Assembly: GCA_963664705.1 (NCBI GenBank)
Contig: OY761556.1
Span: forward strand, 2,592,001 to 2,656,000
Length of the DNA stretch: 64,000 bases
Direction of reading: 5' to 3'
Source: Acidobacteriota bacterium
GTDB taxonomy: Bacteria > Acidobacteriota > UBA6911
Positions 41,062 to 61,041 of the stretch are shown in pieces. The notes below the pieces were generated by a model, which saw nothing but the letters and a program-made list of their open reading frames with translations, searched no databases and was not told where the DNA came from. A program made the translations under genes and the position numbers. The number at the start of each line of letters is the position of its first letter. Position 1 is the first letter of the stretch.

Positions 41062-41115
41062 TGTCACATTAATGTGACATATTTCTTGACAAGCCATTAT
41101 TAACTTTTATAGCCT
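41062..41115 (+). promoter_or_regulatory. Operator plus promoter, copy C (selenoprotein/esterase operon)
   Basis: TGTCACATTAATGTGACA-TATTTC-TTGACA-N18-TAGCCT. Confidence 0.75.
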
Positions 41116-41619
41116 GCCAGCGCATTCACAGTCATCATCCTCAAAAAGCTTTTGCGGGTGGCCTGTCCGGCAAAACTCAAAAAGGCTTCGAAAGAATGCA
41201 TTTGATGCACGAACTACCGGCTTTTGGTGACTGACCTCCCAAAAGCGCAACAGGGATGCCAGTCATGGCCGGCACGCCTGCCGCGGAGAGCACTGGTTCC
41301 TCCGTATATGCTACTTCATCCATCAGTGCTTTCTGCGGCAGGAACTATTGCTTTGAGAAAATATATGCCTCTTTTTACCAATGATCACGGTAGATTCTCT
41401 GGATGGAAGGCACTCTCTATTTTGGCAATAACATAGTTCGTGATGACGGGATTGGTTTCTCTAGTCCGGCTCCGAGCTGAGCGCCATTTGCTGCCGGCAT
41501 TATCGCCGGCCTCGGATGCGCAAAGGCTCTGGAGCTGAATTCACCGGGAACACTTCCTTCAAAAGGAAATATTCCCTTCCCTTGCACAGTTTGCTCTATT
41601 CTATCGGGAGATGGGACAC

Positions 41620-43419
41620 ATGAAAATAAAGACATTTGCTTTATCGATTGTTCTTCTCGCGAGCTTTTTTGCATCCGCCGCATGGGCGGCGGGGACTGCA
41701 AAGATTGTCGTGATGAATCCGCGGGGCATCCAGCCGGAAATCCGCAAGATTCCGATGGCAAAACGCCAGGCGACGCTCGATGACAAAACGGTCTACATAA
41801 TCGACATCAAATATCCGAACACAAAACCTTTTGTGGAGGCGATGCTTGCGGCGCTGAAAGCCAAGTATCCGAAGACCACGTGGGTGGTGAAGGAAAAGCT
41901 CGGCGGATACATGGATGATGATCCGGCGCTGTGGAAGGAAACCAAAGAGAAAGCCGCCGCTGCCATCGTCCTGGTGGGGCATTGAAGCAGCTGCTCGCCG
42001 GCAGTTGTCGGCCATGCAGTGACACTGGAAAGAATGGGCATCCCCGCGGTACCGATGATCACAGCGCGTTTCAAAGAGCTGGTAACGACGATCTCGTACA
42101 AAAAAGGGATTCCGAACATGCGGATCACCTATACGCCGCATCCCATCACCGACAGACCCCGGGATCTTTGCGACAAGTATGTGCAGGGCAACGATCCGAA
42201 CAGCGGCCAGCCGATGCTGGAACAGATCTATGGAGCGCTGACGAAGCCTCTGTCCGCGGAAGACGCCAAGGCCGGCTTCCTCAAGCGAGATCCGCGCCCG
42301 AGGCTGTTGCCTCCGGACACGCCGGAAAACCTGCTGGAATACTTCCACGAACACGTCTTCACCGACGGCAACCCGATCATTCTCCCGACCGAACAGAAGG
42401 TGGCGGAAATGCTGAAAGCCACCAGCCGCAAGCCGGATGAATGGGTCGGCCAGATGCGTCCCTCTCCTCCCCATGAAGCCTGGTACTACACGGTGGAAAT
42501 GGTCGCCGTGAATGCCGTCATGGCGGGAGCCAAACCGGAATACTTCCCCACGATCCTGGCGATTGCCTCCAAGGGTTTGACCTCGATGTTCAGCTCGACT
42601 TCGTCGTTTGCCCGCATGGTCGTCGTCAACGGCCCGGTGGTGAAGGAAATCGGCATGAACACCAGCATCGGAGCACTGGGTCCGAACAACCGTGCCAACT
42701 CCTCCATCGGCCGCTGCTGGACGCTGATCTCCAAGAACCTCGGCGGATCCGGGAAACCGGGAGAAACCTACCTGGGCAGCCAGGGGAACCAGTTGAACTA
42801 CAACAACCTCTGCTTCCCGGAAACGGAAGAAGGGTTGCCGGCAGGATGGAATCCGTTGTCGGTGCAGAAGGGTTTCAAGAAGTCCGACAGCGTGGTCAGC
42901 CTGTTCAGCGGCTGGAGCTTCAACGATATCGCCTGGTACTCGCCGCTGCCGCAGCATGAAGTCATCCGCGGCTGGCTGGAACATTTCTTCTCGTTCGGGA
43001 CGACGCAGGCAACGCTGGTGCTCGATCCGATTGTGGCAGCCGACGTAGCGAACATCGGTCACTTTGGGACGAAGGAAGCCTTTGCCCAATGGCTGGCAGA
43101 CAACACCGGGACCCCGGGCTGGCTGTACTGGTCGCAGAACGAAAATGCTCTTAAGCAGGCGAAAGAGGGAGTGGAACCCTATGCCGGCTGGTATAAACAG
43201 GGCACGGGCGCGGTAGTGCCATCCTCCCGCTATAAGCGAAATCGCGGTGGCGTGGCAAGGAATGCCCCACCGAGAAATTCCTCCTTCATTGCATCGGAAA
43301 ATAGCAATGAGCCAACAAATTCAGTCAACATTGTTGTGACCGGCGGCGGGACGAACACGTTCTGGTCGGGCGGCGATTTTGGTTATGCGGGCAGTGCGTC
43401 CGTAGATCTCTGGAGATAG
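41620..43419 (+). CDS. Exported UGSC-family selenoprotein, copy 1 (Sec at TGA 41983-41985, motif GH-U-SSC), about 599 aa
   Basis: ORFs 41611..41985 and 42019..43419 share a frame, separated only by TGA. Read-through gives IVLVGHUSSCSPAVVGHAVTLERMGIP. SECIS-like hairpin follows. Signal peptide ending AWA; GGGAG RBS. Confidence 0.88.
41986..42018 (+). promoter_or_regulatory. Bacterial SECIS-like element, copy 1
   Basis: Stem GCCGGC/GTCGGC with loop AGTT starting 17 nt after UGA; lower TGC/GCA pairing. Confidence 0.7.
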
Positions 43420-43432
43420 GAGGAACGATCTT

Positions 43433-43999
43433 ATGAAAAACCGAACAATAATTATTGCAATAGCGCTGTTGGGATTGGTCGCATGCCTCCAGCCTGTCAT
43501 GGCGCAGGAGAACACGCCCACGAATCCGGTTGCCGTAAAGGTGCCGCTGAAATCGATGGTCGAACTCGGGTCGGTGTATACCAACATCTATGACATCACG
43601 ATCACGGTACTTGAAACTGTTCGCGGCAATGCGGCGCTTGAACAGCTCAAGGCGGCGGATCCGAATGTCAAGGCGCCGGCAGCGGGCTTTGATTACGTGC
43701 TGGCACGCGTCAAGTTCGAACTCAAGGGGCGCTATGTCAGCGACAACCTGTCGTTTGATCTCGGAACCGAACCGTTGCAGTGGGTTTTGCTGTCGGGCGC
43801 GGATCTGACGGAATATGACCGGGTATCGCTGACGGTTCCCAAGCCTGCTTTGGCAGGCATTGTGAAACCCGGCAGTTCGATGGAAGGCTGGGTGGGCTTT
43901 GCCGTTTCTCAAAAAGACGCCAAGCCGGTGATGGTATTTGATCCGGATACCGGCGGCGCTACAGGGCGCGGCAAAACTCTATTTTTTAAGCTGTATTAA
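43433..43999 (+). CDS. Exported DUF4352-like (Ig-fold) protein, partner of selenoprotein copy 1
   Basis: Signal peptide; YDITITVLETVRG...YVLARVKFE...GWVGFAV...KPVMVF. Paralog of 52072-52644. Confidence 0.75.
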   Translation: MKNRTIIIAIALLGLVACLQPVMAQENTPTNPVAVKVPLKSMVELGSVYTNIYDITITVLETVRGNAALEQLKAADPNVKAPAAGFDYVLARVKFELKGRYVSDNLSFDLGTEPLQWVLLSGADLTEYDRVSLTVPKPALAGIVKPGSSMEGWVGFAVSQKDAKPVMVFDPDTGGATGRGKTLFFKLY

Positions 44000-44068
44000 G
44001 GGGTCGAACCGGTGCATTCCAAAGCATGCTATGCACCGCATTATTTACGTTTGGGAGGGGGACCACCA

Positions 44069-45679
44069 GTGAACACAATCAGAACCGGATGGATAAGCAC
44101 TGCCTTAGCGGCTTTCATCCTGCTCGCGTCGAGTCTTGCATGGGCCGACGAGGCAGAATTCCGCAATGCCTGCGTATCTCTGGGTAAATTATCGACGCAA
44201 TCTTTCCGCGTTGATGCCTCGGAGTGGGTTGCAGCCTCGCGTGTGCCTGCAGGACCGGGAGGTGCCACCATGGAGGTCCCCGCCCACTGTCTTTTTCGCG
44301 TCATGATTGACTCTCGCTCATCCGGAATGGATGAGCTGAGCTATGGCACGGGAATCGAAATGCGATTGCCGCTGGACTGGAATGGCCGCATGTTGTTTCA
44401 GGGCGGCGGCGGGTTGGATGGTGTGCTAACGCCCGCATTCGGATCTGTTTCCGGAGCTCCTTCCGCGCTTGCACGCGGGTTCGCAGTAGTTTCCACCGAT
44501 GGGGGCCATCGCGGTCGCAGCAGTGTAGATGGGCGCTTTGCTGTTGACCAACAAGCCAAGCTTGATTTTGCCTATCAAGCGGTTCAACGCACAACTCGCG
44601 AGGCAAAATCGCTCATCAATCGCTATTATGGACGCAAACCGGACTATTCCTACTTTATGGGATGCTCAACGGGCGGGAGGGAGGCGATGCTTTCAGCACA
44701 ACGTCTTCCGCTGGAGTTCGACGGCGTGGTTTCCGGCAATGCCTCCTTTAATTTGACGCGGGTTGCGGCAAACCAGGTCTGGAGTTTGCAGACTGTTACA
44801 CGGATCGCGCCCAAAGACGCAAGCGGCAAACCTCTGCTCTCGGAAGCCTTCACGGACACACAGCTAAAGGCAATATCGAAAGCCGTTCTCAAGCAATGCG
44901 ATGGACTCGATGGACTCGAGGACGGGATGATCAATGATTTCAAATCCTGTCCATTTGATCCGGCTTCTCTTCGCTGCAGTGAAGCGGCGGGTGCGGGCAA
45001 GACGGAGTGTTTGTCTGCGCAGCAAATCAGCGGATTAAAAGACATCCTCGGCGGTGCCCGAAATTCCAGGGGCGAATCACTCTACGGCGCAACCCCATAC
45101 GACACAGGCATTGCCCAGCCAGCCTGGCGGGCAATGCACCTGGGAACTGCAAAAGATGAACCCGCGAATGCATGGCTCGGCCGTGATACTCTGCGCCTTT
45201 TCGCCGTCACACCATCGAATCCTGATCTCGATCCGCTGAAATTCGATTTTGATCGCGATATGGTTTCTACCGCGGAGACCGCCGCCATCAACGATGCAGT
45301 GGCTACGCTGCACACCACATTCGCGGGGCACGGCGGCAAAATGATCGTCTACCATGGCCTATCGGATCAAGCAATGTGGACCGGTGCACTGACTCAGTGG
45401 TATGAACGCCTGACCCCTCGCGACAGCCAGGGGCCTCAATCCTGGGCCCGCCTGTTTCTTGTTCCAGGCATGACTCACTGCGGCGGCGGACAATCGACGG
45501 ATCAATTCGATATGCTCACTGCCATTCAACAATGGGTCGAAAAAGGGCAGGCTCCGGACCGTGTTGTTGCCTCGGGGAAGGCATTCCCCGGCAAGACTCG
45601 CCCACTGTGTCCTTATCCGAAAGTAGCCCGGTTCGACGGCGGCAATCCCGACGACCAGAAAAGCTTTTCCTGTCGCTAA
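44069..45679 (+). CDS. Secreted tannase/feruloyl esterase family hydrolase
   Basis: WNGRMLFQGGGG, STDGGH, GCSTGGRE, YHGLSD, GMTHCGGG, RPLCPYP. Confidence 0.93.
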   Translation: MNTIRTGWISTALAAFILLASSLAWADEAEFRNACVSLGKLSTQSFRVDASEWVAASRVPAGPGGATMEVPAHCLFRVMIDSRSSGMDELSYGTGIEMRLPLDWNGRMLFQGGGGLDGVLTPAFGSVSGAPSALARGFAVVSTDGGHRGRSSVDGRFAVDQQAKLDFAYQAVQRTTREAKSLINRYYGRKPDYSYFMGCSTGGREAMLSAQRLPLEFDGVVSGNASFNLTRVAANQVWSLQTVTRIAPKDASGKPLLSEAFTDTQLKAISKAVLKQCDGLDGLEDGMINDFKSCPFDPASLRCSEAAGAGKTECLSAQQISGLKDILGGARNSRGESLYGATPYDTGIAQPAWRAMHLGTAKDEPANAWLGRDTLRLFAVTPSNPDLDPLKFDFDRDMVSTAETAAINDAVATLHTTFAGHGGKMIVYHGLSDQAMWTGALTQWYERLTPRDSQGPQSWARLFLVPGMTHCGGGQSTDQFDMLTAIQQWVEKGQAPDRVVASGKAFPGKTRPLCPYPKVARFDGGNPDDQKSFSCR

Positions 45680-45791
45680 CCCGGCGTCCTATTCAGCCAC
45701 ACCGAATGGTTCCCGGCGTAGAGGCAATTATTCCCACAGGAAGGTGCGTTTTCCCGACCAAAGTATTTCATAAAATTCGAGGAGGTCATAA

Positions 45792-46790
45792 ATGAAGAAC
45801 TTGATGCACTGCCTTGGCATGCTGGTATTCCTGACGTGCACTGTCTATGCTCAAGCGCCGCCGTCAACGCAACCTGTGGCGAATGCCCCAACCGTTCTTC
45901 CAGCTTCAACACCGCTGGGAACCGGATCGCTAAAGGCAATCATGGAAGCGGACGCTGCCTTGGCCAAGCACACTGTGTATCGACCCAATGATATGAACGC
46001 CATTGGTTCGGCAAAGCTGCCTATCCTGGCCTGGGGCAACGGCGCTTGTGCAGCGGACGGCAACGCCTTCCGCCTTTTCCTGACCGAAATTGCAAGCCAT
46101 GGCTATCTGGTCATTGCAAACGGTCCCATTGGTCCGGACAGGGCGCAGTTTCCACCAACCATGCCGGCCAACCGTGGCGCGACTGCGACGAAACCAAACC
46201 CTGCCACTGCTGCTCCTCCAGTCATTTCATCAACTCCTCCCACCACAACGGCTCAGCTCATTGAAGCCGTTGATTGGGCAATCAAGGAAAACAGTCGCAA
46301 GGGCAGCAGGTACTTTGGCAAACTTGACACAGCGAAAATAGCGGTGGCAGGCATGTCCTGCGGCGGAGTACAGGCGATCGAAGCTTCTGTTGATCCGCGA
46401 GTAAAAACCACCATTGTCGCCAATAGCGGATTAATGACCGTGCCCACGACAATGTCAGGGAGCGGGAAGCCTGTCCCCAAAGAGTCACTGAAACTGATGC
46501 ACGCGCCGGTGCTCTACATGAGCGGCGATGAGTCGGACATCGCGTACGGAAATGCCAATGACGATTTCGAAAAGATCAACCACATACCGGTTTTTCGCGC
46601 CTTTGAAAAAGGTATCGGCCATGGGGGCACCTACCACGATCCGAATGGGGGTGCCTTTGGTAAAGTCGCCCTCGCCTGGCTTGACTGGCAGCTAAAAGGT
46701 AACAAAACGGCTGCGAAGATGTTCCGAGGAACGAAGTGCAGTTTGTGCAGCGATTCGCAGTGGGTTACGCGTAAAAAGAAGATTGATTAA
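45792..46790 (+). CDS. Secreted alpha/beta hydrolase (chlorophyllase/cutinase-like)
   Basis: HTVYRP, AWGNGAC, EIASHGY, AGMSCGG, GHGGTY, WLDWQLKG. Confidence 0.88.
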   Translation: MKNLMHCLGMLVFLTCTVYAQAPPSTQPVANAPTVLPASTPLGTGSLKAIMEADAALAKHTVYRPNDMNAIGSAKLPILAWGNGACAADGNAFRLFLTEIASHGYLVIANGPIGPDRAQFPPTMPANRGATATKPNPATAAPPVISSTPPTTTAQLIEAVDWAIKENSRKGSRYFGKLDTAKIAVAGMSCGGVQAIEASVDPRVKTTIVANSGLMTVPTTMSGSGKPVPKESLKLMHAPVLYMSGDESDIAYGNANDDFEKINHIPVFRAFEKGIGHGGTYHDPNGGAFGKVALAWLDWQLKGNKTAAKMFRGTKCSLCSDSQWVTRKKKID

Positions 46791-46877
46791 ACCTGCATTC
46801 CGGCTCAATCGATGTTAACAGGGAGAACACGGACAAGCAATTCCGTGTTCTCCTTTCTATTCAGTCCTTGTGGCTGA

Positions 46878-48556
46878 TTATGCCCCTGCATCCCACGATC
46901 TGAGCGCAACCGCATGTTTTGCGGCGATTCTACCGGAGAACAAACACTCCCCAATATTCCCACCCGAGTTGTATCCCCAACCCCAGAAGGATCCAAGTTC
47001 CCCAGTTCCATAAAGCCGCGCAATCGGTCTTTTATAGGGATCCACAATCTGACAAAACTTATTGCGCCTCGGTCCGCCCATGGTGTTTGCAGTGTTAGGC
47101 CATTGCTTCATTGCATAAAAAGGTGGTCCGCCGATAGGAGCCAGCGACCCCGGGAATCTGCCGAATTCGAGATCCTTTTTATCGGCACAGAACTGATTGT
47201 ACTGAGCCACGGTCGATTCCAGCTTTTTTGCATCCATCAGATTGCGATTATCCGAATCCCTTCTGATCTTCGCCGCCAGTTCATCCAGTGAATCCGCTTT
47301 CAGTATCCAGCCTTTGGCAATCTCTTCTCTATTATCAGCACTCCAATTGATACCGGAGTGCCACACAAACCAAGTCCATTTCCCTCCCCCACCGATTGCC
47401 TTGGATGAGAGCATAGAGCCAGCTTTAACTGAAGCCTCATCGAAAATTGCCCAACAGGGGACGCTGGACCAATCCATTGCGGCAGCATTGAAATCAAGAT
47501 TGCGGGTCCCGAGTCCGTGGGAGCGAGTGCCGCCTCTTTCATTCATGTATCGTTTTCCCAGCTTGTTGACCAGAATGGAGCTATTGCCTCTTGGACCGGC
47601 AGGCGCCAGACCGATGATGTGGGGATCTGTCCCCGGAACCACAAAGCAACCCGGATGCCCGCCGTTGATTTCGTTCATGTGCCATAGATCCGCACCAACT
47701 TTCTGAGCCATTCGGATTCCATCGCCGGTGTTTCCAGGCGTTCCTACCCCCATGACTGGCGAGCCCCAGAAATACTGCTTTTGCATTGCATAGTCAAACT
47801 CCAGGCCGCCGCAGGCGAGTACGACTGCCTTTTTGGCCTTAATTGCGATTTTGACCCCTTTTTTTCAGCCATCACGCCGGCAATCTCTTTCGTTCCGCTA
47901 TCCTGAATGAGTTCCTTTGCAGGCGTCTCATACAAAACCGGGATTCCTCGCTTCTGCACCTGGTCGCGCATAAACTGCCATAGCCGCCCATCGCCTGTGG
48001 TCCCGCGGCTGGCACCATCCACTGACCAGGCATAGGCCTGATAACAGTCGCTGCCAGGCAGTTCCGGAAAGGCTATATCCGCCATGGCAAGAGGCAGCGG
48101 AGCGAGAGTTGCTCCCAGATTTTTGAGAACCTGCAGGTTTTCCGCCAATCCTTCAGACATGACCTTGAAGATTTCCTCGTCTTCCGTCATTCCGCAATCC
48201 ATGGCTTTGATATACGCAATCCCCTTTTCGACATCCTTGGGCGCCCAGATGAACTGCATACAGACTTTGCTGTTCCCTCCCTCGTACTGCTGCGAGAGTT
48301 TTTCCAGGAGCAGCACCTTGGCACCCGCATCCGCCGCGGCAACAGCGGTCGAGAGCCCTGCCATCCCGGTTCCGACAACCACAAGGTCGGCCGTATGATC
48401 CCATTTTACCGGAATGCCGGAATCGCACTTGGGATGCGCCTTTGCAGACGTAGAAGCCCCCAGGAAGGTCAGGGTGCCTGCCCCGGCAAGCGCCGCAGCA
48501 TCGGCGGCGGCGCCCTTGATAAATTTGCGACGCGTAAGGTTCTTTTCATTCGACAT
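46878..48556 (-). pseudogene. Tat-exported FAD-dependent oxidoreductase (FAD_binding_2, flavocytochrome c-like) split by a -1 frameshift at 47859-47865
   Basis: TRRKFIK Tat motif, VVVGTGMAG, GGNS. After GAA AAA AAG the -1 frame continues GVKIAIKAKKAVVLACGG...GNTGDG...TMGG...RLYGTGE, colinear with the paralog at 54464-56116. Confidence 0.85.
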
Positions 48557-48606
48557 AGGAACTCTCCATCTCTGCAAAACTTGGATCAATCCTGCCAGGA
48601 ATTTGA

Positions 48607-48626
48607 TATGCATAATGCATGCATGT
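48607..48626. promoter_or_regulatory. TGCAT-rich operator between the divergent flavoprotein and CocE genes
   Basis: TATGCATAATGCATGCATGT, 18/20 identical to 63428-63447. Confidence 0.55.
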
Positions 48627-48724
48627 AGCATATTATACGCACTACATGTTCGGAATCAGTGAAAATTCCAATGGAACCCCAAGAACATACTTTTCGTAAA
48701 ACGTGCAAGTCAATCAAGAGATCT

Positions 48725-50500
48725 ATGATGAAAGCAATTATTTGCGTTACGGAATCAATTCTGCTGATATGCGCGGCTTTAGCTCAAACGACGCAGGCAG
48801 CACGGCCGATCTCTTCCTTTGGTCAATATCAGCCGGCGCCGCTTTATAGCGAAGCGATCACAACATCGCACTATTTGACCATGCGCGACGGCGTTCGCCT
48901 GGCAGTCAGCATTACACGTCCCTCTAATAATGGAAAGCCGGTTGAAAAGCGATTCCCGGTTCTTTGGCAACATACATTGGCGATAGCAGCGCCCGGTATT
49001 CAGGCATCCGGAAATGGAAGTGCGGGGGGGTATGGTGCGGTACCCAGCCTTGCCTACAACGGCTATATCGTCGTTCAAGTGGCCAGACGCGGGCAGGGGC
49101 CCTCATTTGGGAAACGCCGCGGATACAACGACCGCTCCGAAGCTTATGATGCCTATGAAGTGATCGACTGGCTTGCTTCGCAACCCTGGTCGACAGGTGC
49201 GGTAGGCGTATACGGCTGTTCAAACACTGGTGACGCATCCATGCACGCGGTTACATCGGCCAATCCGCATTTGAAGGCGGCTTGGGCAGGGTGCTTTTCC
49301 TGGGAAAAATACGATGGCTTCTGGCGCGGGGGAATCTACGCCAATTGGGGAACCGGCCCAGAACGCACCATTGAACAGGACATGGCAAATATTCCGGTGC
49401 AGGGAGATGAAGCAAAGGTGTTGCTGCGCCAGGCGGCAGAGGAACATCAAGGCGGCACCGTGCTCACTCAGATGTGGTCTGCCATGCCATTCCGTGATGA
49501 TTATGCCCCGGGAGTAGGCAGCCGTTTCTGGTATGAAGGGAGCGTCGCAAGCTATTTGCCGCAGATGAACACATCAGGCACCGCCATCTACATTCAAGGC
49601 GGCTGGCGCGATGATCTTCGGGGCCAGGGATTGCTAGCCTACGCCAACCTGACAAATGACCGGCATGTGGTTATAGGTCCATGGGGGCACTGCCAGAATG
49701 ACGATTTCAATATGCTTGCCGAAATGCACCGCTTTTTTGATCAACATCTGAAAGGAATAAATACCGGCATTTTATCCCAGGACCCGATTCACTATTTTAC
49801 GGTCAACGCTCCGGTGGGAACCGAATGGCGTTCCTCTAAAACCTGGCCGGTTGCAGGCACCCAGCAAATCAAATTCTATCTGGCTGGCGGTTCGAACGAG
49901 GGAGGGCAGCTGTTGTCTCAGGCTCCCGCCGGAGCAGAGACGCAAACATCCTTTACCGTTCGTTATGACGTGGATTGCCCCAGCCGGCCCAAAATGCCGG
50001 GAGGGATGCTAACCGGCGCTCCGCCCTGCCCTGTAAATCATGGCGGGCCGCGGTTCATTACGGCTCCGCTGGAATCGAACCTCGAGGTCACGGGCGATGC
50101 CGTCGTAGATCTCTGGCTTTCCTCAAGTGCCGTCGATGCAAATATCTTTGTTTATCTGGAAGATGTGGCACCGGATGGAACGACCACACAGGTCACCGAT
50201 GCACGATTGAAAGCCTCGCTCCGAAAGATCAGTAAGCCGAGGTACGAAAACAACGGCTTACCCTATCATCGCAGTCATAGAGAAGATGCTCAGCCATTAA
50301 AGCCCGGGGAGCCTGCGCATCTCATGTTTGCATTTCTGCCGGCATCCCATATTTTCAAAGCGGGCCATCAAATGCGGATCTCGATTGCAGGAGCGGATTA
50401 TCGAGAGCGCGATCGCACACCGGTTTCCCCTGCACCGGTGGTAACCATCCACAACACCCCAGCACACCTTTCTTTCGTGAGCCTGCCTATTGTCCGATAA
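48725..50500 (+). CDS. Secreted CocE/NonD-family hydrolase
   Basis: MRDGVRLA, RGQGPSFG, DAYEVIDWLASQPWSTGAVG, GCSNTG, GGWRD, IGPWGH, PepX_C-like C-terminus. Confidence 0.9.
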   Translation: MMKAIICVTESILLICAALAQTTQAARPISSFGQYQPAPLYSEAITTSHYLTMRDGVRLAVSITRPSNNGKPVEKRFPVLWQHTLAIAAPGIQASGNGSAGGYGAVPSLAYNGYIVVQVARRGQGPSFGKRRGYNDRSEAYDAYEVIDWLASQPWSTGAVGVYGCSNTGDASMHAVTSANPHLKAAWAGCFSWEKYDGFWRGGIYANWGTGPERTIEQDMANIPVQGDEAKVLLRQAAEEHQGGTVLTQMWSAMPFRDDYAPGVGSRFWYEGSVASYLPQMNTSGTAIYIQGGWRDDLRGQGLLAYANLTNDRHVVIGPWGHCQNDDFNMLAEMHRFFDQHLKGINTGILSQDPIHYFTVNAPVGTEWRSSKTWPVAGTQQIKFYLAGGSNEGGQLLSQAPAGAETQTSFTVRYDVDCPSRPKMPGGMLTGAPPCPVNHGGPRFITAPLESNLEVTGDAVVDLWLSSSAVDANIFVYLEDVAPDGTTTQVTDARLKASLRKISKPRYENNGLPYHRSHREDAQPLKPGEPAHLMFAFLPASHIFKAGHQMRISIAGADYRERDRTPVSPAPVVTIHNTPAHLSFVSLPIVR

Positions 50501-50561: not shown

Positions 50562-50612
50562 AAAACGCCACGAATTTCACGAATTTAGGCTCCGTGAAAT
50601 TCGTGGCGTTTT
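50562..50612. terminator. Bidirectional terminator-like hairpin between convergent genes
   Basis: AAAACGCCACGAATTTCACG / CGTGAAATTCGTGGCGTTTT, perfect 20-bp stem flanked by A and T runs. Confidence 0.75.
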
Positions 50613-52071: not shown

Positions 52072-52644
52072 TCAGTACAAGCGGAACCAGGAAGTCCCGG
52101 GGTTAAAGATCACCACCGGTTTCCTGTCGCCTTTTGCCACATTTAGTGAAAGCCAGCATTCCAACACATCCCCTGAACGAAGCACTGGACCCCGTCCTGT
52201 CTGCGCGGTCAGAATCGCCGGCTCTTCATAGGGTTTTCGGTCTTCGGAAAAGGCGCTAAACTGCATTCCTTTTACTTCCCAGGGCTTATCCCCGGGAGCA
52301 CCACGCGCTTTGTATTCAAACCGGACACGTGCAAGAACCGGCTCCGAATCCTGTTTTGCCTGCACACCGGACTTACCAAACTTCTTCAGCACTTCGACGC
52401 ACGCCTCACCCCGAACAATCTCGGCCACCGCTATTTTGAGGTCATAGGTCTCGGGCGAAACATACATATCACTGAGTTCAACGATGGTCGACACGGTTGT
52501 TCCAACCAATGCCGCATCTTCGGAGGAAATGCCTGTCCCTGGTTTCTCTTGTTTTGCCGGTTCTGATTTTTCAGAACAGCCGGTCAGAGCGACCAGGGTT
52601 ATAGTCAAGATGCAAGTGCAAATCGCTGGGAATCGCATTGGCAA
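52072..52644 (-). CDS. Lipoprotein, DUF4352-like, partner of selenoprotein copy 2
   Basis: LTGC lipobox; YDLKIAVAEIVRG...VLARVRFEY...KPVVIF...FRLY. Paralog of 43433-43999. Confidence 0.75.
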   Translation of the reverse strand: MPMRFPAICTCILTITLVALTGCSEKSEPAKQEKPGTGISSEDAALVGTTVSTIVELSDMYVSPETYDLKIAVAEIVRGEACVEVLKKFGKSGVQAKQDSEPVLARVRFEYKARGAPGDKPWEVKGMQFSAFSEDRKPYEEPAILTAQTGRGPVLRSGDVLECWLSLNVAKGDRKPVVIFNPGTSWFRLY

Positions 52645-52648: not shown

Positions 52649-54409
52649 CTATTTCCATTTATCTATGGATGCACTGGCCAGATATCTAAAATCGCCCGCA
52701 TACCAGTAGGGATTGGTCTCGCCACCAACCACGACGATCTCCACCCCTGCTTTTGGGCTAAAAAGCGGCAGGGGAGAATCGGATTCCGGCGCTCGTCTCA
52801 AAAGAGAGGCATATGGCTGAACTCCCGCCTTAGCCTTATTCAGATAATCCGGCATAGCGTTCCAGTAATTCCACATCGTAAAGTGCACATGCTCGGTCAG
52901 CCACTGACTTAGCTTTTCTTTCGTTTCGAAAGCTTCCTCTTCCTGAAGAGCTCTGGCGGTGACCGGATCGACAATCAGTGTTCCTGCCGTCTGGATGTTC
53001 ACCCCTGGAGTATGGTGGGCGCCAGCCCCGCTCATCTCCAACGCCACCATTTGACGCCTCATCAATTCATGATATTTGTCTGGATTATAGGCGCTGTAAT
53101 TCAGGAGCGTCCACCCGTTGAAAACGCTCACAACACTCTCTCTCTGCTTAAAGCCCTTTTGCACATGCAGAGGCTTCCAGCCGGACGGCAAAGCTTCTTC
53201 TTTCTCGGCAAAACATAGGTTGTTGTAATTGTAGTTATTTCCGAATGTCCCAAGATACGTTGTCCCGGCTTTCCCGCCGCCACCGAGGTTTTTGGTGATA
53301 AATGTCCACGTCCTGCCAATCACGGCATTGGCCTCATCGAACGGACCCAAGGCACCTATCCCCATATTCATCTTTAGTTCGTTTCTTATGGGGCCATTGG
53401 TTACCATCATCCGGGCCATGGAGGATGTCGATGAGGGAAGCGAAGCTTGCCCTGTTGCAGCCAAAGCCAGGATGACCGGGAGGTGTTTCGGTTGGGCACC
53501 TGCCATCACGGCATTGACGGCAACCATTTCGACCGTATACTTCCAGGGCGCCTGCGCGGGCGAGGGCATCATCTGACCGACGATTTCATCGGGCTTGTGG
53601 CTCGTCCCTTTAAGCATTTCTAAAACTCTCTGTTCGGTGGGGAGTGCTATCATGAGCCCATCGGTCCAACCGTTTTCTACAAACTGGTGCTCCAGGTTCT
53701 GAACTGTATCCGGTTTCAGCAACCTTTCCCGTGGCTTTTCAACGAATCCAGTCTTCTTGTCTTCCTCCGATAACGGTTTGGTTAAAGCTGCTACGATCTC
53801 GTCAATAACGGGCTTCCCAGTCAACGGATCGCTCCCCTCAATGTATTTTCGGCACTCTTCCGCGGACTTATTCGAAACCGGGTGATGAATAAAGGTAAAC
53901 CGTTCACGCGGCATTCCTTTGCTGATGGCAGTTGCCTCTGCAACCTCTTGAAATCGTCCAGTGACAATAGGGGCTACAGGCACTCCGAGTTTTTCGACCG
54001 TAATAGCATGGCTGGCGACCGCCGGCGTACAGCTGCTTCAATGGCCAACGCCAATGATCATTCCCTGCGCATTCGCTTTGATTTCCTCCCACAGTTTCGG
54101 ATCATCGTCAAAGTAGGTGCCCGCCTTGCTTTTAACCACCCATTTGGTTTTGGGATACTTTTCCGAAAATACTTTTTGAATTTCCTCGAATAACTGGTGC
54201 GTCAGTGGATACATCACGTCCACGATGTATATAGTCTTCCCTTCCAGCGTATCCATCCGAGGCGCCATTGGAAGCAACGGAGTTGGGGAAGGTGCGCCGA
54301 CCGGATTCAGGACAGTTATCGTCTTCTGTTCGGGGTTTTGAGTGCAGGCAACGAACAGACAGGTAAGAAGACAGATTCCAATTTGCAGCCAACCCATGCT
54401 CTTTTTCAC
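52649..54409 (-). CDS. Exported (probable lipoprotein) UGSC-family selenoprotein, copy 2 (Sec at TGA 54038-54040), about 586 aa
   Basis: ORFs 54038..54409 and 52649..53983 are in frame. Read-through gives IIGVGHUSSCTPAVASHAITVEKLGVPVAP. UGA is at the same position as in copy 1; SECIS-like hairpin; FVAC lipobox-like. Confidence 0.88.
54005..54037 (-). promoter_or_regulatory. Bacterial SECIS-like element, copy 2
   Basis: UGA-AGCAGCUGUAC-GCCGGC-GGUC-GCCAGC-CAUGCU; GGUC loop 17 nt after UGA, one C-A mismatch. Confidence 0.7.
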
Positions 54410-54463: not shown

Positions 54464-56116
54464 CTACTTCCAGGGCTTTTCCGCAGCAGCATTTTCACCG
54501 GCGATGCGGCCAAATGCTATCGCTTCCGGAATGTTGCTCCCACCCGGGTATAAAAATCCGAAGAACGAACCGAATTCGCCGGCGGAATAGAGCCTTGGAA
54601 TAGGTTTGTTGTCCTTGTTAAGCGTTTGCGCCCTTCCGTTATGTTTGGGGCCACCCTGCGTATTGGTAACAGTAAGTGCCAATTCCGCCGCATAGTACGG
54701 CGGGCTGGATACAGGAAACAGATTTTCGGGACGACGCTTGAAGTCAGGATCATTACCGGACTGGCAGTATCCATTGTATTTCGATACGGTTGTTTCAAGC
54801 CCGGCTGAATCGATCCCCATCTTTGATGCAAGTTCCTTGATCGTATCCGCTTTCAGAACCCAGCCCTTTTCAATTTCTGCAGTGTTATCCGAACTCCATT
54901 CCACAACCTTGTGAACATGATTCCATTGGAAGGTATTTTTCGGAACCAATGCCTGTTTCGCGCGATAGGCTTCATCAAAGATGATATAGAAGGGCTGATT
55001 GGGGTATTCGACCCTCTCATGGTCAAAGTAGGTTAATTCCAGCGATTCCTTAATATGCGTCAGACTTTTGGTATCGTTCATGAATCGCTTGCCGTATTTG
55101 TTTACAAGGATGTAATTACCCGGAACACCGGCATTGGTGCAAATCCCTGCCATGACCGAGATACCGAATTTCTCGCTGGGAGCTTTGACGCAGGGGCCGT
55201 CCCATTCGAGATTGCAGGTATGCCAAAGCGGAGCGCCAACCTCGGACATCATTTTGATGCCATCCCCCGTATTGTAGGGACTCCCCCAAGGATATATTTT
55301 GATTCCAGGGAAATTGAAGTATACCTGCATCTCGTAATTGGCTTCGTAGCCACCGCATGCAAGCACGACCGCCTTTCTGGCCTTTACATAAATCTGCCTG
55401 CCGTTCTGCTCCGCCACAACCCCCAGGATGGATTTATCTGCCGGATTTTGAACCAGTTCTTTTGCAGGAGTTTCATATAAGACGTCAATGCTCCTATTCT
55501 GCAGGCAGGTTTTGTGAGCCAGATACAGTTCCTTCCCAGTTCCCATGCGGGCATAGCCTTTTGGCGGCACGATTGCGTATATCCTGTTGCCTCCCGCGCC
55601 TGGCAGCAAACTGAGGCCCGAAGGCACCCGAACCGGCGCAGCCGATGCCGGCTTGTTTGCGGGCTTAGCCGAACCCATTTGGACCGGTGCAGTATCTATA
55701 CCGATTTTTTTTAGCTGCGCCGGAACTTGCAGCATTGCTTCCGCCATATCAGCGACAAGATCTTCGGGAACAGTCCCAAAGGCAAGGGCCCGATAATACT
55801 TTCTGGCATCCTCGATGTCTGACGGTATCGACATCCCCCCACCGGAAACCGATGAATTTCCGCCTGCAAATTGCTCCGGCGCTTTTTCAAGGATCAGAGT
55901 TTTCGCACCTGCATCATGGCTGGCAATCGCGGCATTACATCCGGCATACCCGGCACCCACTACCACAACATCCGCTTCACGATCCCATTTTGGAGGAAGC
56001 CAGGGCCGAGAGCCATTGCCCGAAGCGGCGTTACCGCTCACATTCCCAACGAACACTGCGGCTGCAATCCCCGTGGTACTGCTGCGAACAAAGCGCCTGC
56101 GTGTCAGTGAACTCAT
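54464..56116 (-). CDS. Tat-exported FAD-dependent oxidoreductase (FAD_binding_2, flavocytochrome c / ketosteroid dehydrogenase-like)
   Basis: TRRRFV Tat motif, VVVVGAGYAG, GGNSSVSGG, VVLACGGY, NTGDG, TQGG, RLYSAGE, GRIAG. Confidence 0.92.
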   Translation of the reverse strand: MSSLTRRRFVRSSTTGIAAAVFVGNVSGNAASGNGSRPWLPPKWDREADVVVVGAGYAGCNAAIASHDAGAKTLILEKAPEQFAGGNSSVSGGGMSIPSDIEDARKYYRALAFGTVPEDLVADMAEAMLQVPAQLKKIGIDTAPVQMGSAKPANKPASAAPVRVPSGLSLLPGAGGNRIYAIVPPKGYARMGTGKELYLAHKTCLQNRSIDVLYETPAKELVQNPADKSILGVVAEQNGRQIYVKARKAVVLACGGYEANYEMQVYFNFPGIKIYPWGSPYNTGDGIKMMSEVGAPLWHTCNLEWDGPCVKAPSEKFGISVMAGICTNAGVPGNYILVNKYGKRFMNDTKSLTHIKESLELTYFDHERVEYPNQPFYIIFDEAYRAKQALVPKNTFQWNHVHKVVEWSSDNTAEIEKGWVLKADTIKELASKMGIDSAGLETTVSKYNGYCQSGNDPDFKRRPENLFPVSSPPYYAAELALTVTNTQGGPKHNGRAQTLNKDNKPIPRLYSAGEFGSFFGFLYPGGSNIPEAIAFGRIAGENAAAEKPWK

Positions 56117-56509: not shown

Positions 56510-56563
56510 TGTCACATTTATGTGACATATCTCTTGACAATGCGTCCGCACATCGCGTAGCTT
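56510..56563 (+). promoter_or_regulatory. Operator plus promoter, copy D (TonB-dependent receptor)
   Basis: TGTCACATTTATGTGACA-TATCTC-TTGACA-N18-TAGCTT. Confidence 0.75.
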
Positions 56564-56845: not shown

Positions 56846-59800
56846 ATGCGTTCAAGTAGGTGCTTGATTGCAGTTGCTTGCCTTATCCTCGTAGCAGTCC
56901 CGGCTTTGTGCCAAAGCGACCGAGGTACCATAACCGGGACCATTTCGGATCCCGCCGGCGCTATGATTTCGAATGCCCCGATTGAAGCCAAGAACACACA
57001 AACAGGAGCTGTTTATCAGACTGTCAGTTCCACCACAGGCAATTTCACTCTACCCCAACTGCCTGTCGGAGTTTATCAACTGACTGCGACGCAACCTGGA
57101 TTTAAGCAGTATTCGCGAACCGGAATCACGGTCATGGTTGCGCAGACTCTTCGCATTGATATTCCGCTGGAAGTCGGAAACATCAGCGAAACCGTTTCAG
57201 TGAGCGCGGATGCTCCCCTCCTGAAAACGGAGAGCGGAGAGCTGAGTCACAATGTCACAGCTGAACGTATGGAGAGCCTTCCCTTAGTGGGATTTTCCAC
57301 CGTCCTGCGCGATCCATTAGCCGTTATGGCACTCATCCCGGGCACGCTGTACCAGAACAGAAACTGGTTTCGCGTCAATGGAGCTCCTTCAGCTACGCTG
57401 AGCATGCGCGTGGAAGGTATGGAGGCCACCAATGGAATGCTGGCACAGAGCACTGGGATGAATCAACAAAGCATGGCTGCAATCGAGGAGTATGCGATTC
57501 AGACCAGCAACTATGCCGCTGAGTATGGACAGGCCGGCGGTGGTTATATCAACATGACCATGAAGTCCGGCACCAACAACTATCATGGGAGTGCGTACGA
57601 TTACTTTTCCAATGAGGCCCTCAACGCCGCGCAGCCCTATGTGAACACCAAACCGCGCGTGCGCAGAAACGACTTTGGGTTCACGCTTGGAGGCCCCGTA
57701 TACATCCCAGGCATTTATAACGGCCACGACAAGACGTTCTTCTTTTTCAACTTCGAGGAATACCGCGAGCAAACGCGATATAACAATACTACCTACACGA
57801 TGCCGACAGACGCCTACCGCAACGGTGATTTTCGCCAGGCTTTGACCGGCAAGAATCTATGTGGACCAGATAATTTGAGCACGCCACAGGATGAATCGAA
57901 ATGCGATCCGCTGGGCCGCACCATTATGGAAGGCACAATCTACGATCCGCAGACCGAACGCCTCGTCAACGGTGTGCGCGTTCGAGATCCGTTCCAGTAC
58001 CAGGGGGTCCTTAATACAATTGATCCGGCCCGATTCGATCCGGTTGCGGTCAATATCCAGAAATTTATTCCACTGACTACGAATTCGGGTATAACCAACA
58101 ACTATCTGCATGTATGGGATAGTCCCAATATTCGATGGATTCCAGGCTTCAAGATCGATCACAACATAGGCAGCCGCTCCAAGCTGGCATTCTTCTGGTC
58201 TGCAACACATAACAATCAAATTCAGGCCCCCGGGCCTCCGGGAGGGGACGGCATTCCAACGGAAGCCTCTACTGCAAGGCAAACGCTCCAAAATGCATAT
58301 TTGACACATCTGAGCTTTGATCAGACGCTCACCCCAACCATGGTGCTTCATCTGGGCACCGGCGTTCAGAGTTTGATTTTCGAGGACCCGGCGGCCAATA
58401 CCCACTTCGACCAGCAAAAAGAGCTCGGCCTCCCAGGATCGCTGTACACCGTCTTCCCATTCATTTCGGGACTCTCGGCGGCTCGCGGCGGCATGTCGGC
58501 ACGATCTGTTACGGTGCCGACAGGCAACATGGGACCTTTCATGCAAACCCGCTCTGTTATGTTCAAGCCCGCCGCAAATGTCAGCCTCACCTGGGTAAAA
58601 CAAAACCACACCTACAAGTTCGGTGCGGAAGGGCGTTGGGAAAAATTTCCCACCATCCTCTATTACCCCTCCTACGGTGGATACAACTTCAGTGCCGACC
58701 AGACCGGGCTTCCCTCAACTCTGGGGCAGAATTTGGGGGGCGGCACAGTCGGATTCCCGTACGCGAGTTTCCTCCTGGGGCTCGTTGCAGATGGCAATAC
58801 CGGAGTTGCCAGCGCTCCCCGGCTGGCCAAATCGGCATGGTCTATGTTTGCTCAAGACACCTGGAAAGTGACCCGCAAATTCACGCTTGACTATGGATTA
58901 AGGTGGGATTACCAGGATTACTTTAAGGATTCGCAGGGCCGCGTTGCAAGTTTCTCGCCCACCACGCCGAATCCTTCAGCGGGCGGCCTGATGGGAGCCG
59001 TGATCTATGAAGGCCCCGGAACTGGGCATTGCAACTGTGACTTCGCGCGGGTTTATCCTTTCGCATTTGGCCCTCGATTGGGAGCCGCCTATCAGATAAC
59101 GCCCAAAACAGTCCTGCGCATGGGGATAGGCATTTCTTACGGGCAAACGGCAAGCGAGAGTCAGACATCGTGGAAAGTTGGAGCCAATAACCCGTATAAA
59201 AATCCTGAGTTCGGCACGGCGGCGGGTCTTTTGCGCAATGGCATGCCAACTCCGCCTTCGTGGCCCATCTTAAACGCCGGGTTGTATCCCCGTGCGGGTA
59301 CGCTCAGCGCGCCCCCGGTTGCCATCGATCGCAACGCCGGTCGGCCGCCGAGGCAGATACAATGGAGTATAGGAATTCAGCGCGAGATCTTTGCCAACCT
59401 TGCCGTGGAAGCCTCTTATGTCGGCAACCGCGGTGCCTGGTGGGAAGCAAACGAACTGATCAATGTCGACGCGCTGACACCTGAACGGATTGCCGCGGCC
59501 GGGCTCGATGTTACCAGCGCGGCAGACCGACTTCTGTTGACCTCTCCGCTGAATTCAACGCTGGCAGCGCAACGCGGCTTCAACAAGGCGCCCTACGTGG
59601 GTTTTCCGATGACGGCTACGGTGGCCCAATCGCTGCGCCCGTTCCCGCAATTTCAGGGCTCGGCCAACAATGTACCGGCAGTCTCCTATCTCTGGGCTCC
59701 TCTCGGCAGAACCTGGTATGACTCGCTGCAGGTAAAGGTAACCAAGCGCTTTTCCCAGGGGTTGGATCTCACCAGCACATTTACCTGGCAGAAAGAGTTG

Positions 59801-60502
59801 ACCATGGGCGCGGAACAGGTGGGGAGTTCGACCGGATCGAGCGGCGCGTCGGTAAACGATGTATTCAACCGGGGCTCGAACAAATACATCTCCATGCTTT
59901 CCCGCCCCTTCGTTTCTGTAACTGCACTCAATTACACCCTGCCGAAATTGAATATCAACCGATTTTTGTCCATGGCAATCCGGGATTGGACGTTCGGCGC
60001 ATCGCTGCAATACGCAAGCGGCTTGCCGATCAAGGCTCCAGTAGCTCAATCCTCGCTCAGCTCAGTGCTCTTCCGGGATACCTTTGCCAATCGGGTTTCG
60101 GGACAGCCCCTCTTCCTTAAGAACCCCAATTGTCATTGTGTCAACCCGTACCAAGACTTAATTCTTAATCCCAGCGCCTGGGCCGATCCGGCTGCCGGGA
60201 CATTTGGCTCCGGGGCTGCCTATTACAATGATTATCGTCAACAGCGCCGACCCGGGGAATCCATGAGTCTTGGGCGGACCTTCCGGATTAGGGAAGGTGC
60301 TTCATTGAACATCCGCGCGGATTTTCAAAACATATTCAACCGCACGGAGATGAATAGTCCAACATCAACCAACGCCAAAGCCTCTACTACGTGGAATGAT
60401 ACTGCCCATACGATCCTCGCTTCGGGCTTTGGATATGTCAATCCGGCCAGCGTGGCCGCTGCTCCCAGAGCAGGGATGATCGTCGCCAGTTTCAAGTTTT
60501 AG
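56846..60502 (+). CDS. TonB-dependent receptor, Oar-like, with carboxypeptidase-regulatory-like N-domain
   Basis: QSDRGTITGTISDPAGA, YAAEYG, KSGTNNYHGS, FGFTLGGP, FAQDTWKVT, FGPRLGAAY, C-terminal aromatic F. Confidence 0.95.
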   Translation: MRSSRCLIAVACLILVAVPALCQSDRGTITGTISDPAGAMISNAPIEAKNTQTGAVYQTVSSTTGNFTLPQLPVGVYQLTATQPGFKQYSRTGITVMVAQTLRIDIPLEVGNISETVSVSADAPLLKTESGELSHNVTAERMESLPLVGFSTVLRDPLAVMALIPGTLYQNRNWFRVNGAPSATLSMRVEGMEATNGMLAQSTGMNQQSMAAIEEYAIQTSNYAAEYGQAGGGYINMTMKSGTNNYHGSAYDYFSNEALNAAQPYVNTKPRVRRNDFGFTLGGPVYIPGIYNGHDKTFFFFNFEEYREQTRYNNTTYTMPTDAYRNGDFRQALTGKNLCGPDNLSTPQDESKCDPLGRTIMEGTIYDPQTERLVNGVRVRDPFQYQGVLNTIDPARFDPVAVNIQKFIPLTTNSGITNNYLHVWDSPNIRWIPGFKIDHNIGSRSKLAFFWSATHNNQIQAPGPPGGDGIPTEASTARQTLQNAYLTHLSFDQTLTPTMVLHLGTGVQSLIFEDPAANTHFDQQKELGLPGSLYTVFPFISGLSAARGGMSARSVTVPTGNMGPFMQTRSVMFKPAANVSLTWVKQNHTYKFGAEGRWEKFPTILYYPSYGGYNFSADQTGLPSTLGQNLGGGTVGFPYASFLLGLVADGNTGVASAPRLAKSAWSMFAQDTWKVTRKFTLDYGLRWDYQDYFKDSQGRVASFSPTTPNPSAGGLMGAVIYEGPGTGHCNCDFARVYPFAFGPRLGAAYQITPKTVLRMGIGISYGQTASESQTSWKVGANNPYKNPEFGTAAGLLRNGMPTPPSWPILNAGLYPRAGTLSAPPVAIDRNAGRPPRQIQWSIGIQREIFANLAVEASYVGNRGAWWEANELINVDALTPERIAAAGLDVTSAADRLLLTSPLNSTLAAQRGFNKAPYVGFPMTATVAQSLRPFPQFQGSANNVPAVSYLWAPLGRTWYDSLQVKVTKRFSQGLDLTSTFTWQKELTMGAEQVGSSTGSSGASVNDVFNRGSNKYISMLSRPFVSVTALNYTLPKLNINRFLSMAIRDWTFGASLQYASGLPIKAPVAQSSLSSVLFRDTFANRVSGQPLFLKNPNCHCVNPYQDLILNPSAWADPAAGTFGSGAAYYNDYRQQRRPGESMSLGRTFRIREGASLNIRADFQNIFNRTEMNSPTSTNAKASTTWNDTAHTILASGFGYVNPASVAAAPRAGMIVASFKF

Positions 60503-60509
60503 CTATAAT

Positions 60510-60549
60510 CTCCCGGGGAGGCGGGCCGCTGGTTTCGCCGCCCCGGGAG
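60510..60549 (+). terminator. GC-rich hairpin after the receptor gene
   Basis: CTCCCGGGG...CCCCGGGAG with inner GGCG/CGCC pairing; no U-tract. Confidence 0.45.
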
Positions 60550-60591
60550 CATAAGCCGTATGGTTGTCTTGGCTTTGTACGAGGTTTAAGC

Positions 60592-61041
60592 ATGATCGGA
60601 AATATCCGTATCCGCTCCGTCGCGGTTTTAATAAATCTGACATGGATTCTTTCTGTCTTTGCCCTGGCTGAGGACAAAGATGCTTCTCCAAAATTCCCCA
60701 GCATAAAATGTGAAGAGCTGAAGAAACTGATCGACGATAAGTCGGCCAATATTCTGGTGGTCAGCAATGATCCGCAGGAGTCCTTTAATGAAGGCCATAT
60801 CCCAGGAGCAACCAGTTTCCCCTGGACAGACGATCTCAGGCCGCCCATCACACTCCCCCGCAACAAGACGCTCGTTCTTTATTGTTCATGTGCACACGAG
60901 GAAGATTCGAGTGACATGGCAGCCAAACTGAAAGTTTTTGGGTATCGAAATATAAAGGTACTTGAGGGAGGTTGGCTGCAGTGGCTAAAGCTTAAATATC
61001 CTATCGCGGCGCTTAAAACTCGCAGACCCAATGCACCTTAG
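60592..61041 (+). CDS. Exported rhodanese-like protein
   Basis: Signal peptide; FNEGHIPGA, LVLYCSC, VLEGGWLQW. Confidence 0.88.
   Translation: MIGNIRIRSVAVLINLTWILSVFALAEDKDASPKFPSIKCEELKKLIDDKSANILVVSNDPQESFNEGHIPGATSFPWTDDLRPPITLPRNKTLVLYCSCAHEEDSSDMAAKLKVFGYRNIKVLEGGWLQWLKLKYPIAALKTRRPNAP

Follow-up and report, generated by a model that had tools for sequence, protein, structure and literature searches.

The window analysed here, a 64,000-nucleotide stretch of contig OY761556.1 (positions 2,592,001 to 2,656,000) from the Acidobacteriota bacterium assembly GCA_963664705.1, encodes two exported selenoproteins of the UGSC family, each followed by the gene for a small DUF4352-like partner, and profile searching established that these are two of 35 full-length paralogs in this genome, 31 of which contain selenocysteine (Sec). 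Our preferred interpretation, which we advance tentatively, is that the exported proteins are selenolate reductases of the PrdB/GrdB type that would bind their substrate through a C-terminal domain (C-domain), would be assisted by the partner in the case of some copies, and would be regenerated by periplasmic thiol relays. The family and the fusion of its UGSC domain to a second domain, Unknown_1, were already known, and the exported expansion, the partner and an operator-like palindrome appear to be the new parts. In the following, G000 denotes this genome, G001 to G018 are comparison genomes, and numbers preceded by L are loci.

Selenocysteine at the UxxC motif

Each window copy contains a single in-frame TGA, located in the motif G-H-U-S-S-C, across which the table-11 open reading frames (ORFs) 41611-41985 and 42019-43419 merge into the one frame of selenoprotein 1, and 54038-54409 and 52649-53983 into that of selenoprotein 2. 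Alignment of the paralogs places TGA at the UxxC position in 31 of the 35, and in the 77 loci from other genomes (the GTDB set), which form the base for the Sec/Cys and neighbour counts reported here, 70 copies have Sec in the corresponding column and 13 have Cys. The genome possesses two selA, two selB and two selD genes scoring over their cut-offs, together with two long tRNA-Sec candidates. Downstream of the UGA a hairpin resembling a selenocysteine insertion sequence (SECIS) is formed by six pairs (+15..+20/+25..+30), a register that was derived from copy 1 and a pattern that caught 24 of the 31 Sec copies of this genome; the pairs in register in these 24 and 70 other Sec copies exceeded those in 500 of 500 synonymous shuffles, while for the Cys copies 200 of 500 shuffles reached the same value. 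A folding-energy test beat the shuffles in all three sets and therefore does not separate Sec from Cys, and consensus folding of 28 ungapped post-UGA stretches yielded no common structure. The DUGSC subclade (G000 copies at 1.684, 1.727, 2.672, 3.015 and 6.773 Mb) has a longer post-UGA hairpin off the +15..+30 register, which is a second SECIS type. The in-frame UGA, the SECIS-like hairpin and the Sec machinery indicate that UGA is read as Sec at the UxxC motif. Four full-length paralogs (at 0.444, 2.728, 2.730 and 5.838 Mb) lack both Sec and Cys at the motif, which is replaced by GDMGTS, GQLDTC, DNGMGG and PSSSTT, and three of these lack an export signal.

A second complete Sec set is located at G000:C1:3066849-3078309 (L031), where selB-selA and selD are divergent and tRNA-Sec is present; its selD has an extra Cys-rich N-terminus, and it adjoins genes which, judged by their N-termini only, resemble a corrinoid methyltransferase module. 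The idea that a doubling of the Sec machinery caused the family expansion was rejected, as one selB was present in 5/5 other genomes of the genus. At three alphaproteobacterial loci (L080, L081 and L086) a family gene immediately precedes selD, and selA and selB-like genes are nearby.

An expanded and exported family

PF24696 matches all 35 paralogs and, in the two window selenoproteins, falls within the first 190 residues (E 1e-27 and 3e-29; 98 and 103 bits, the Pfam gathering cut-off being 25 bits), whereas the NCBIfam equivalog NF041046, with a cut-off of 125 bits, was not reached (68 and 74 bits). A UGSC-containing selenoprotein and the UGSC/Unknown_1 fusion were described in 2008 by Zhang and Gladyshev (PMC2398784), with no function assigned to them. 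The window proteins resemble that fusion in that UxxC lies in a PF24696 domain joined to Unknown_1, their C-terminal domain corresponding to the AVNAVMAG...VNGP segment shown in Fig. S1A of that article when the motif is compared by eye; the 'conserved Cys' of Unknown_1 (AGC) is Ala in 31 of the 35 paralogs and Cys in three. In comparison with the 2008 description, they differ in carrying HUSSC rather than UGSC, in falling below the NF041046 cut-off, in their export signals, in the presence of 35 copies and in having a dedicated partner gene.

The paralogs are 23-95% identical (n=35), and export-like N-termini were assigned to 29 of the 35 by a hydropathy or twin-arginine rule plus inspection by eye. 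At E ≤ 0.001 the family comprises 9,430 clusters at 50% identity, and the closest named relatives of its proteins are from Acidobacteriota. Searches of other genomes, which on fragmented assemblies return matches rather than exact copy numbers, gave 9-47 family matches in 18/18 same-genus genomes as compared to 0-1 in 12 genomes of other families of the class, and 6-36 PF24696 matches in 19/19 genus genomes as compared to 0-2 in 21 genomes of other genera of the family. The Olavius dataset contained 2-12 Sec genes per family (PMC1976440), as compared to 31 of one family here, and the whole-genome selenoprotein records given in PMC13188914 are 57-63.

As described in a preprint (bioRxiv 10.1101/2022.12.26.521950), the arsenals of exported respiratory reductases in Eggerthella, Sutterella and Holdemania are likewise a lineage-specific expansion with tens of signal-peptide redox paralogs, and their enzymes belong to the same PF00890 superfamily as the twin-arginine translocation (Tat) FAD_binding_2 proteins of the window; unlike in those arsenals, the expanded family here is a selenoprotein and not a flavin or molybdopterin enzyme, and the link to respiration is not part of the likeness. 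No paper on the exported clade, the genus-wide expansion, the partner or the operator was found among the papers listed on UGSC, proline reductase, Acidobacteriota/Methylomirabilota selenoproteomes, periplasmic selenoproteins and palindrome halves, albeit that supplements of recent surveys could list these genomes.

Elsewhere, the commonest neighbour of a family gene is a thioredoxin-reductase-like (TrxB-like) gene with CxxC, present at 24 of the 77 loci. Among the 75 scored loci of other genomes it accompanies 22 of 46 copies without an export signal as compared to 1 of 29 with one, and this lone copy looks like a false signal call. This genome has one such TrxB match, at a distance of approximately 54 kb to the nearest copy, and it also encodes one DsbD. 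The proposal in the preliminary description of this DNA that the gene block would provide a functional context for the whole UGSC family does not hold, given the prevalence of the TrxB-like neighbour elsewhere and the location of 30 of the 35 copies outside the island described below. Twin-arginine copies in Acidiferrales-type genomes adjoin a PQQ dehydrogenase gene at 6 of the 77 loci (L040, L050, L054, L056, L079 and L099).

Predicted structure and resemblance to PrdB and GrdB

AlphaFold models were obtained with a pLDDT of 89 for the full length and 93 for the C-domain. In the model the N-terminal domain (N-domain) resembles flavodoxin-, receiver- and Rossmann-like chains (Z 8-10), and the top 50 rows of the structure search were of these kinds, with no thioredoxin among the matches listed; the fold predicted here is flavodoxin-like, while a thioredoxin-like fold was proposed for UGSC in the 2008 article (PMC2398784). 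For the 370-residue C-domain no fold match was obtained with Foldseek (best E 0.37) or with VIA-align among 48,161 chains (best Z 4.9), which does not prove a new fold, and a sequence search of the PDB gave no match for the protein or for the 35-row profile. Conserved residues of the C-domain include Asp250, Ser327/Thr328, Asn361, Arg366 and Glu402.

A profile of PrdB-like selenoproteins from 12 loci of the same phylum aligned with that of the N-domain over 67 columns with U..C in register (hhalign probability 88%, pairwise E 2.8e-6), and 20 column-shuffled controls all remained at ≤ 1.9%. As in PrdB/GrdB (PF07355; described in PMC13188914), UxxC is followed by a helix, by E-x-x-G-I-P and by a later R..P segment, and the non-exported clade of the UGSC family is tied to thioredoxin-reductase-like genes; unlike PrdB/GrdB, the window family has no PF07355 match, bears the extra C-domain and is exported. 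The resolving Cys of UxxC is present in 32 of 34 aligned paralogs. The pyruvoyl proprotein (PrdA/GrdE), GrdA and PrdC were absent from the 61 annotated neighbours and from the recurrent neighbours of the 77 loci, no genome-wide search having been made for them.

The DUF4352-like partner

The partner gene (188 aa) starts approximately 10-13 nt 3' of each window selenoprotein gene, and in this genome eight of the nine partner genes adjoin a family gene, six of seven partner homologs lying within 10 kb of one as compared to 0.6 expected (26 families were tried in this 10-kb enrichment, uncorrected). Of 49 partner matches in genus genomes 28 were fetched, and 21 of these have a family gene within 1.5 kb; the pair recurs at 6 of the 77 GTDB loci, including those of Desulfatiglans and other deltaproteobacterial groups, and in the tree partner-linked copies fall into four or more separate branches. 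The link between selenoprotein and partner is strong, and in this respect the neighbourhood that had been predicted was retained in other genomes; the link of the flavoprotein is weak (see below). Likeness of the partner to DUF4352 (PF11611) is evident in five of eight partner sequences at E ≤ 1 (best 5e-7) and in the nearest Atlas clusters, which include DUF4352 members, although the cut-off of 25.9 bits was not reached (partner 1 at 14 bits, partner 2 without a match). The partner has no conserved Cys, and from its gene order it appears to serve, presumably by binding, a subset of the copies.

The two window pairs have opposite orientations, as had been noted, but their designation as a duplication requires qualification: the selenoproteins are 47% and the partners 27% identical, and the pairs are, on sequence, old paralogs, local tandem duplication being ruled out by the 47% identity together with the tree placement. 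Copy 1 shares 93% identity with copies at other positions of this genome. Judged by eye, the N-termini of both selenoprotein and partner are lipobox-like in operon 2, and those of operon 1 are not.

A palindromic site and its genomic island

The palindrome TGTCACA-N4-TGTGACA is perfect at 41062 and 56510, and the window holds four matches with ≤ 2 mismatches as compared to 0.12 expected; the first of these positions was the start coordinate of the preliminary description, the text of which does not mention the site. In the genome 22 sites with ≤ 1 mismatch have a spacer of 4, as compared to 0-1 for spacers of 2, 3, 5, 6 and 7, and by our gene calls all 22 are intergenic. Seventeen of the 22 fall within 2.617-2.764 Mb, a 147-kb island, and two others are located upstream of the remaining close Tat flavoproteins; sites flank both selenoprotein operons as well as other esterase and flavoprotein genes. 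The site is present in 16/19 genus genomes, with single matches in 3/21 others and 0-1 for a reversed control. A GntR gene (G000 2,681,339) adjoins a perfect site, and a site (≤ 2 mismatches, within 900 nt) is found upstream of 8 of 13 orthologs of this gene as compared to 0 of 11 paralogs, while the three genus genomes without the site also gave no GntR match. According to 51 of its 110 listed genes, the island contains carboxylesterases, PF00756 and GDSL esterases, GH3/GH43 glycosidases, FAD enzymes, glycyl-radical enzymes and 2-hydroxyacyl-CoA dehydratase subunits, and five of the 35 family genes are located in it (p 8e-4), the island making up 2% of the genome.

In related genomes the block is rearranged. 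G001 has the TonB receptor divergent from an orthologous flavoprotein-selenoprotein-partner run, with a site at the position corresponding to 56510; G005 has flavoprotein-selenoprotein-partner-tannase, with the flavoprotein and selenoprotein belonging to other subfamilies, and a site between flavoprotein 2 and CocE; and in G006 a 40-kb stretch combines a TonB receptor and four flavoproteins with CocE, an alpha/beta hydrolase and several genes for selenoproteins and partners, including the order selenoprotein-partner-partner-flavoprotein. In G016 and G018 a site directly precedes the tannase orthologs. The partner link, the common operator and these rearranged blocks together truly back, inside the genus, the ester-catabolism context that had been suggested, whereas elsewhere tannase, CocE and alpha/beta hydrolase accompanied a family gene at 0/77 loci. 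The island is likely co-regulated, and the block looks like a regulon more than a three-subunit complex.

Two further sites of the window (25658-25675 and 25833-25850) are flanked by a glycyl-radical-enzyme region and by a run of sugar-utilisation genes, the last of which encode FGGY kinase, class II aldolase and fucose/arabinose isomerase. A reading of the palindrome as a sigma-54 enhancer was rejected, as 1 of 22 sites was near a promoter resembling the consensus, against a background of 5.8%. Its likeness to the Bacillus MtlR site, seen in the primer table of PMC3217849, was taken as coincidence.

Proposed mechanism and alternatives

In the mechanism that we favour, Sec is predicted to sit at the start of a helix in the flavodoxin-like domain, where the motif region aligns with PrdB/GrdB, and by analogy with proline and glycine reductase it would attack a small substrate held by the C-domain, whose divergence among paralogs may reflect what is bound. 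The neighbouring Cys would resolve the adduct, and the resulting Se-S bond would be re-reduced by periplasmic thiol relays, possibly through DsbD and TlpA-like or rhodanese neighbours, a role that the thioredoxin-reductase-like enzyme may take for the non-exported clade. The DUF4352-like protein would be an accessory subunit of a subset of copies. Through the GntR operator the two window copies may be co-regulated with the TonB receptor, the esterases and the Tat flavoenzymes, a set that would degrade ester-linked, probably plant-derived compounds; here the flavoproteins would be pathway neighbours and not subunits, with the selenoproteins acting alongside them on compounds released by the esterases. 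A bolder form, which we consider possible but rather unlikely, is an arsenal of up to ~45 exported selenoenzymes whose catalytic domain has a new fold; each of them, together with its own small subunit if it has one, would reductively cleave another organic compound in the periplasm.

A number of observations weigh against these proposals. The PrdB comparison was chosen on the strength of a resemblance noticed beforehand, covers only 67 columns and is expressed as a pairwise E-value, and PF07355 matched 0/35 paralogs at E ≤ 1 and nothing in this genome at 1e-10. The export signals depend on a hydropathy rule and the eye, and since the TrxB-linked copies form one clade, the contrast between export and TrxB linkage amounts to a single event. 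UxxC is entirely missing in four paralogs, 27 of the 35 family genes have no adjacent partner, 30 of the 35 are outside the operator island, and no site accompanies the paralogs nearest to copy 1. The target of site 41062 is ambiguous, because the site is much nearer to the start of a leftward Zn-dehydrogenase gene (~90 nt) than to selenoprotein 1 (~540 nt downstream); in G009 a site precedes the ortholog of that dehydrogenase gene. Within 10 kb of a family gene are 5/16 aldehyde ferredoxin oxidoreductases, 5/20 Mo-hydroxylases and 4/15 carboxylesterases (uncorrected), with radical SAM, a control family, at 2/4 and tannase homologs outside the window at 3/12 as compared to 1.0 expected; the stronger enrichment of the first two families relative to flavoproteins or tannases points to a context broader than esters. 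The genome encodes at least 17 homologs of aldehyde ferredoxin oxidoreductase and 21 of the Mo-hydroxylase large subunit, of which several adjoin family genes, and 28 proteins with at least three CxxCH motifs.

The alternative that survives best, although we regard it as unlikely, is that the family performs general periplasmic sulfur or thiol handling, such as polysulfide, persulfide, disulfide or sulfoxide reduction, together with exported rhodaneses, its presence in the ester island being incidental. In its favour, a rhodanese gene is directly downstream of the family gene at 4/77 loci and immediately precedes the copy at G000 6.773 Mb, a TlpA-like gene is a neighbour at three loci, 30 of the 35 copies lie outside the island, and the neighbours are heterogeneous. 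However, 35 paralogs of such wide-ranging identity are more suggestive of many different substrates than of a single housekeeping reaction, five copies are concentrated in the island, and no thioredoxin is among the fold matches listed.

The preliminary description favoured a periplasmic redox unit of Tat flavoprotein, selenoprotein and partner, in which FAD would exchange electrons with the Sec/Cys centre and convert aromatic acids released by the esterases; this we now hold to be improbable. The order flavoprotein-selenoprotein-partner here, in G001 and in G005, and reordered in G006, the operator common to these genes and the occurrence of the flavoprotein clade in 16/19 genus genomes as compared to 0/21 of other genera are consistent with it, and the exported copies, having no TrxB neighbour, need another reductant. 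Nevertheless, of 42 genus flavoprotein matches 28 were fetched, of which three have a family gene or partner within 1.5 kb and 25 do not; a flavoprotein accompanies a family gene at 1/77 GTDB loci; and outside the window 1/7 flavoprotein homologs of this genome is within 10 kb of a family gene, as compared to 0.6 expected. Moreover, there are 3-4 close Tat flavoproteins for 35 selenoproteins, and one of the two in the window is broken. A flavoprotein as constant third member is not supported, and its link to the selenoprotein is weak. The intact flavoprotein 1 carries TNTQGG and LYPGG and not HHTMGG/RLGG, which contribute the catalytic residues of fumarate reductase (TIGR01813 193 bits, cut-off 285), and shares with the ketosteroid dehydrogenase (KstD) equivalog only the YPG motif (201 bits, cut-off 789). 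Lacking the former motifs and having the latter, it resembles C=C dehydrogenases, enzymes with a small-molecule substrate of their own, and probably acts on such a C=C substrate itself.

Flavoprotein 2 was found where it had been placed, but a 1-nt deletion at ~47855-47865 splits its frame (48556->46878). Short-read contigs from two runs of one sample, which may be the source of the assembly, match 43930-50500 with no difference and no gap, the orthologs in G005 and G006 have one extra base at the break, and that of G005 is a single ORF of 558 aa. The break falls in A-AAA-AAG, which we take to be a slippery motif. A programmed -1 frameshift was rejected and a recent deletion is preferred, because the downstream hairpin is not unusual (z -0.74) and the orthologs lack the deletion; leaky slippage is a less likely reading.

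It also appears improbable that Sec serves as nucleophile in a hydrolase or acyl transferase, cleaving esters or ethers through a selenoester intermediate with no net redox change. The island is dominated by esterases and glycosidases, and Ser, Ala or Gly occupies the site in non-Sec paralogs, but the second Cys of UxxC is conserved, the non-exported clade has TrxB-like neighbours, and the likeness is to reductase subunits. That UGA is a true stop separating two genes per locus can practically be dismissed: the best 120 database relatives are all recorded as C-terminal pieces of 393-460 aa because gene callers truncate genes at UGA, whereas TGA occupies one column in 31/35 paralogs, 13 homologs have Cys codons there, and Sec machinery, a hairpin and a single confident fold spanning the site are present.

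Features of the window

Profile matches located the selenoproteins, partners, tannase, CocE hydrolase, major facilitator superfamily (MFS) transporter, TonB receptor, rhodanese and FAD_binding_2 proteins in the arrangement previously given (Table 1). Two assignments could be followed in part: the alpha/beta hydrolase has a weak PETase-like match, and the MFS protein is nearest to aromatic-acid transporters, in both cases below the cut-off.

Table 1. Genes and sites of the block, in window coordinates
Feature	Position	Strand	Remarks
Palindromic site, perfect (candidate GntR operator)	41062..41079		no strand
Selenoprotein 1: signal peptide + UGSC + Unknown_1	41620..43419	+	GHUSSC, Sec codon 41983-41985
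SECIS-like hairpin, copy 1	41997..42012	+	6/6 pairs, G in loop
Partner 1, exported, DUF4352-like	43433..43999	+	Mature chain without Cys
Predicted tannase/feruloyl-esterase-family protein, signal peptide	44069..45679	+	PF07519, E 3e-113, 380 bits (cut-off 29.8)
Exported alpha/beta hydrolase	45792..46790	+	Weak PETase-like match, E 3e-4, below cut-off
Tat FAD_binding_2 flavoprotein 2, likely pseudogene	46878..48556	-	Frameshift ~47855-47865, A7G4 run
CocE/NonD family hydrolase, signal peptide	48725..50500	+	TIGR00976, over cut-off
Terminator-like hairpin, 20-bp, after MFS gene	50564-50610		
MFS transporter, nearest aromatic acid:H+ symporters	50625..51968	-	TIGR00895, 285 bits (cut-off 418)
Partner 2	52072..52638	-	Lipobox-like N-terminus LTGC, judged by eye
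Selenoprotein 2	52649..54409	-	GHUSSC, Sec codon 54040-54038; lipobox-like N-terminus FVAC, by eye
SECIS-like hairpin, copy 2	54011..54026	-	5/6 pairs
Tat FAD_binding_2 flavoprotein 1	54464..56116	-	C-terminal motif LYPGG
Palindromic site, perfect	56510..56527		no strand; between divergent flavoprotein 1 operon and TonB receptor
TonB-dependent receptor	56846..60502	+	
Exported rhodanese, CSC motif	60592..61041	+	Cys form resembling NF041203 (seleno)protein family, 76 bits (cut-off 115)

A TetR gene (61038-61787) converges on the rhodanese gene, and no test tied it to the palindrome. Two rhodanese-like candidates with Y-C-T-U, at G000:C1:4399622 and 4666877, are Sec counterparts of the CSC rhodanese; a crude Sec scan of the genome gave 59 sites, with further candidates of which many are likely false. 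A 90-nt tRNA-like element reported by ARAGORN at 5966-6055, with an unreadable anticodon, has no Rfam match at gathering score, and an Rfam scan of the window gave 0 matches. Another tRNA-like element, of 72 nt with a TCA anticodon (G000:C1:1625651-1625722), is upstream of genes that we take from their N-termini to be rtcA/rtcB-like and opposite a presumably rtcR-like gene. Scans for sigma-70 promoters (12 vs 14) and terminators (30 vs 22) were at chance level.

Implications

UGSC proteins are among the most abundant environmental selenoprotein families and have been without an assigned function since 2007-2008. The partner, the operator and the candidate regulator provide handles on this family, as the ligand of the GntR protein should indicate the class of substrate, and the series of paralogs permits comparative assays on a domain that has no solved relative. 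If the bolder form of the interpretation is true, the exported selenoproteins would join the flavin and molybdopterin enzymes as a third expanded class of extracytoplasmic reductase, and the first substrates of the UGSC family would be named by the GntR island.

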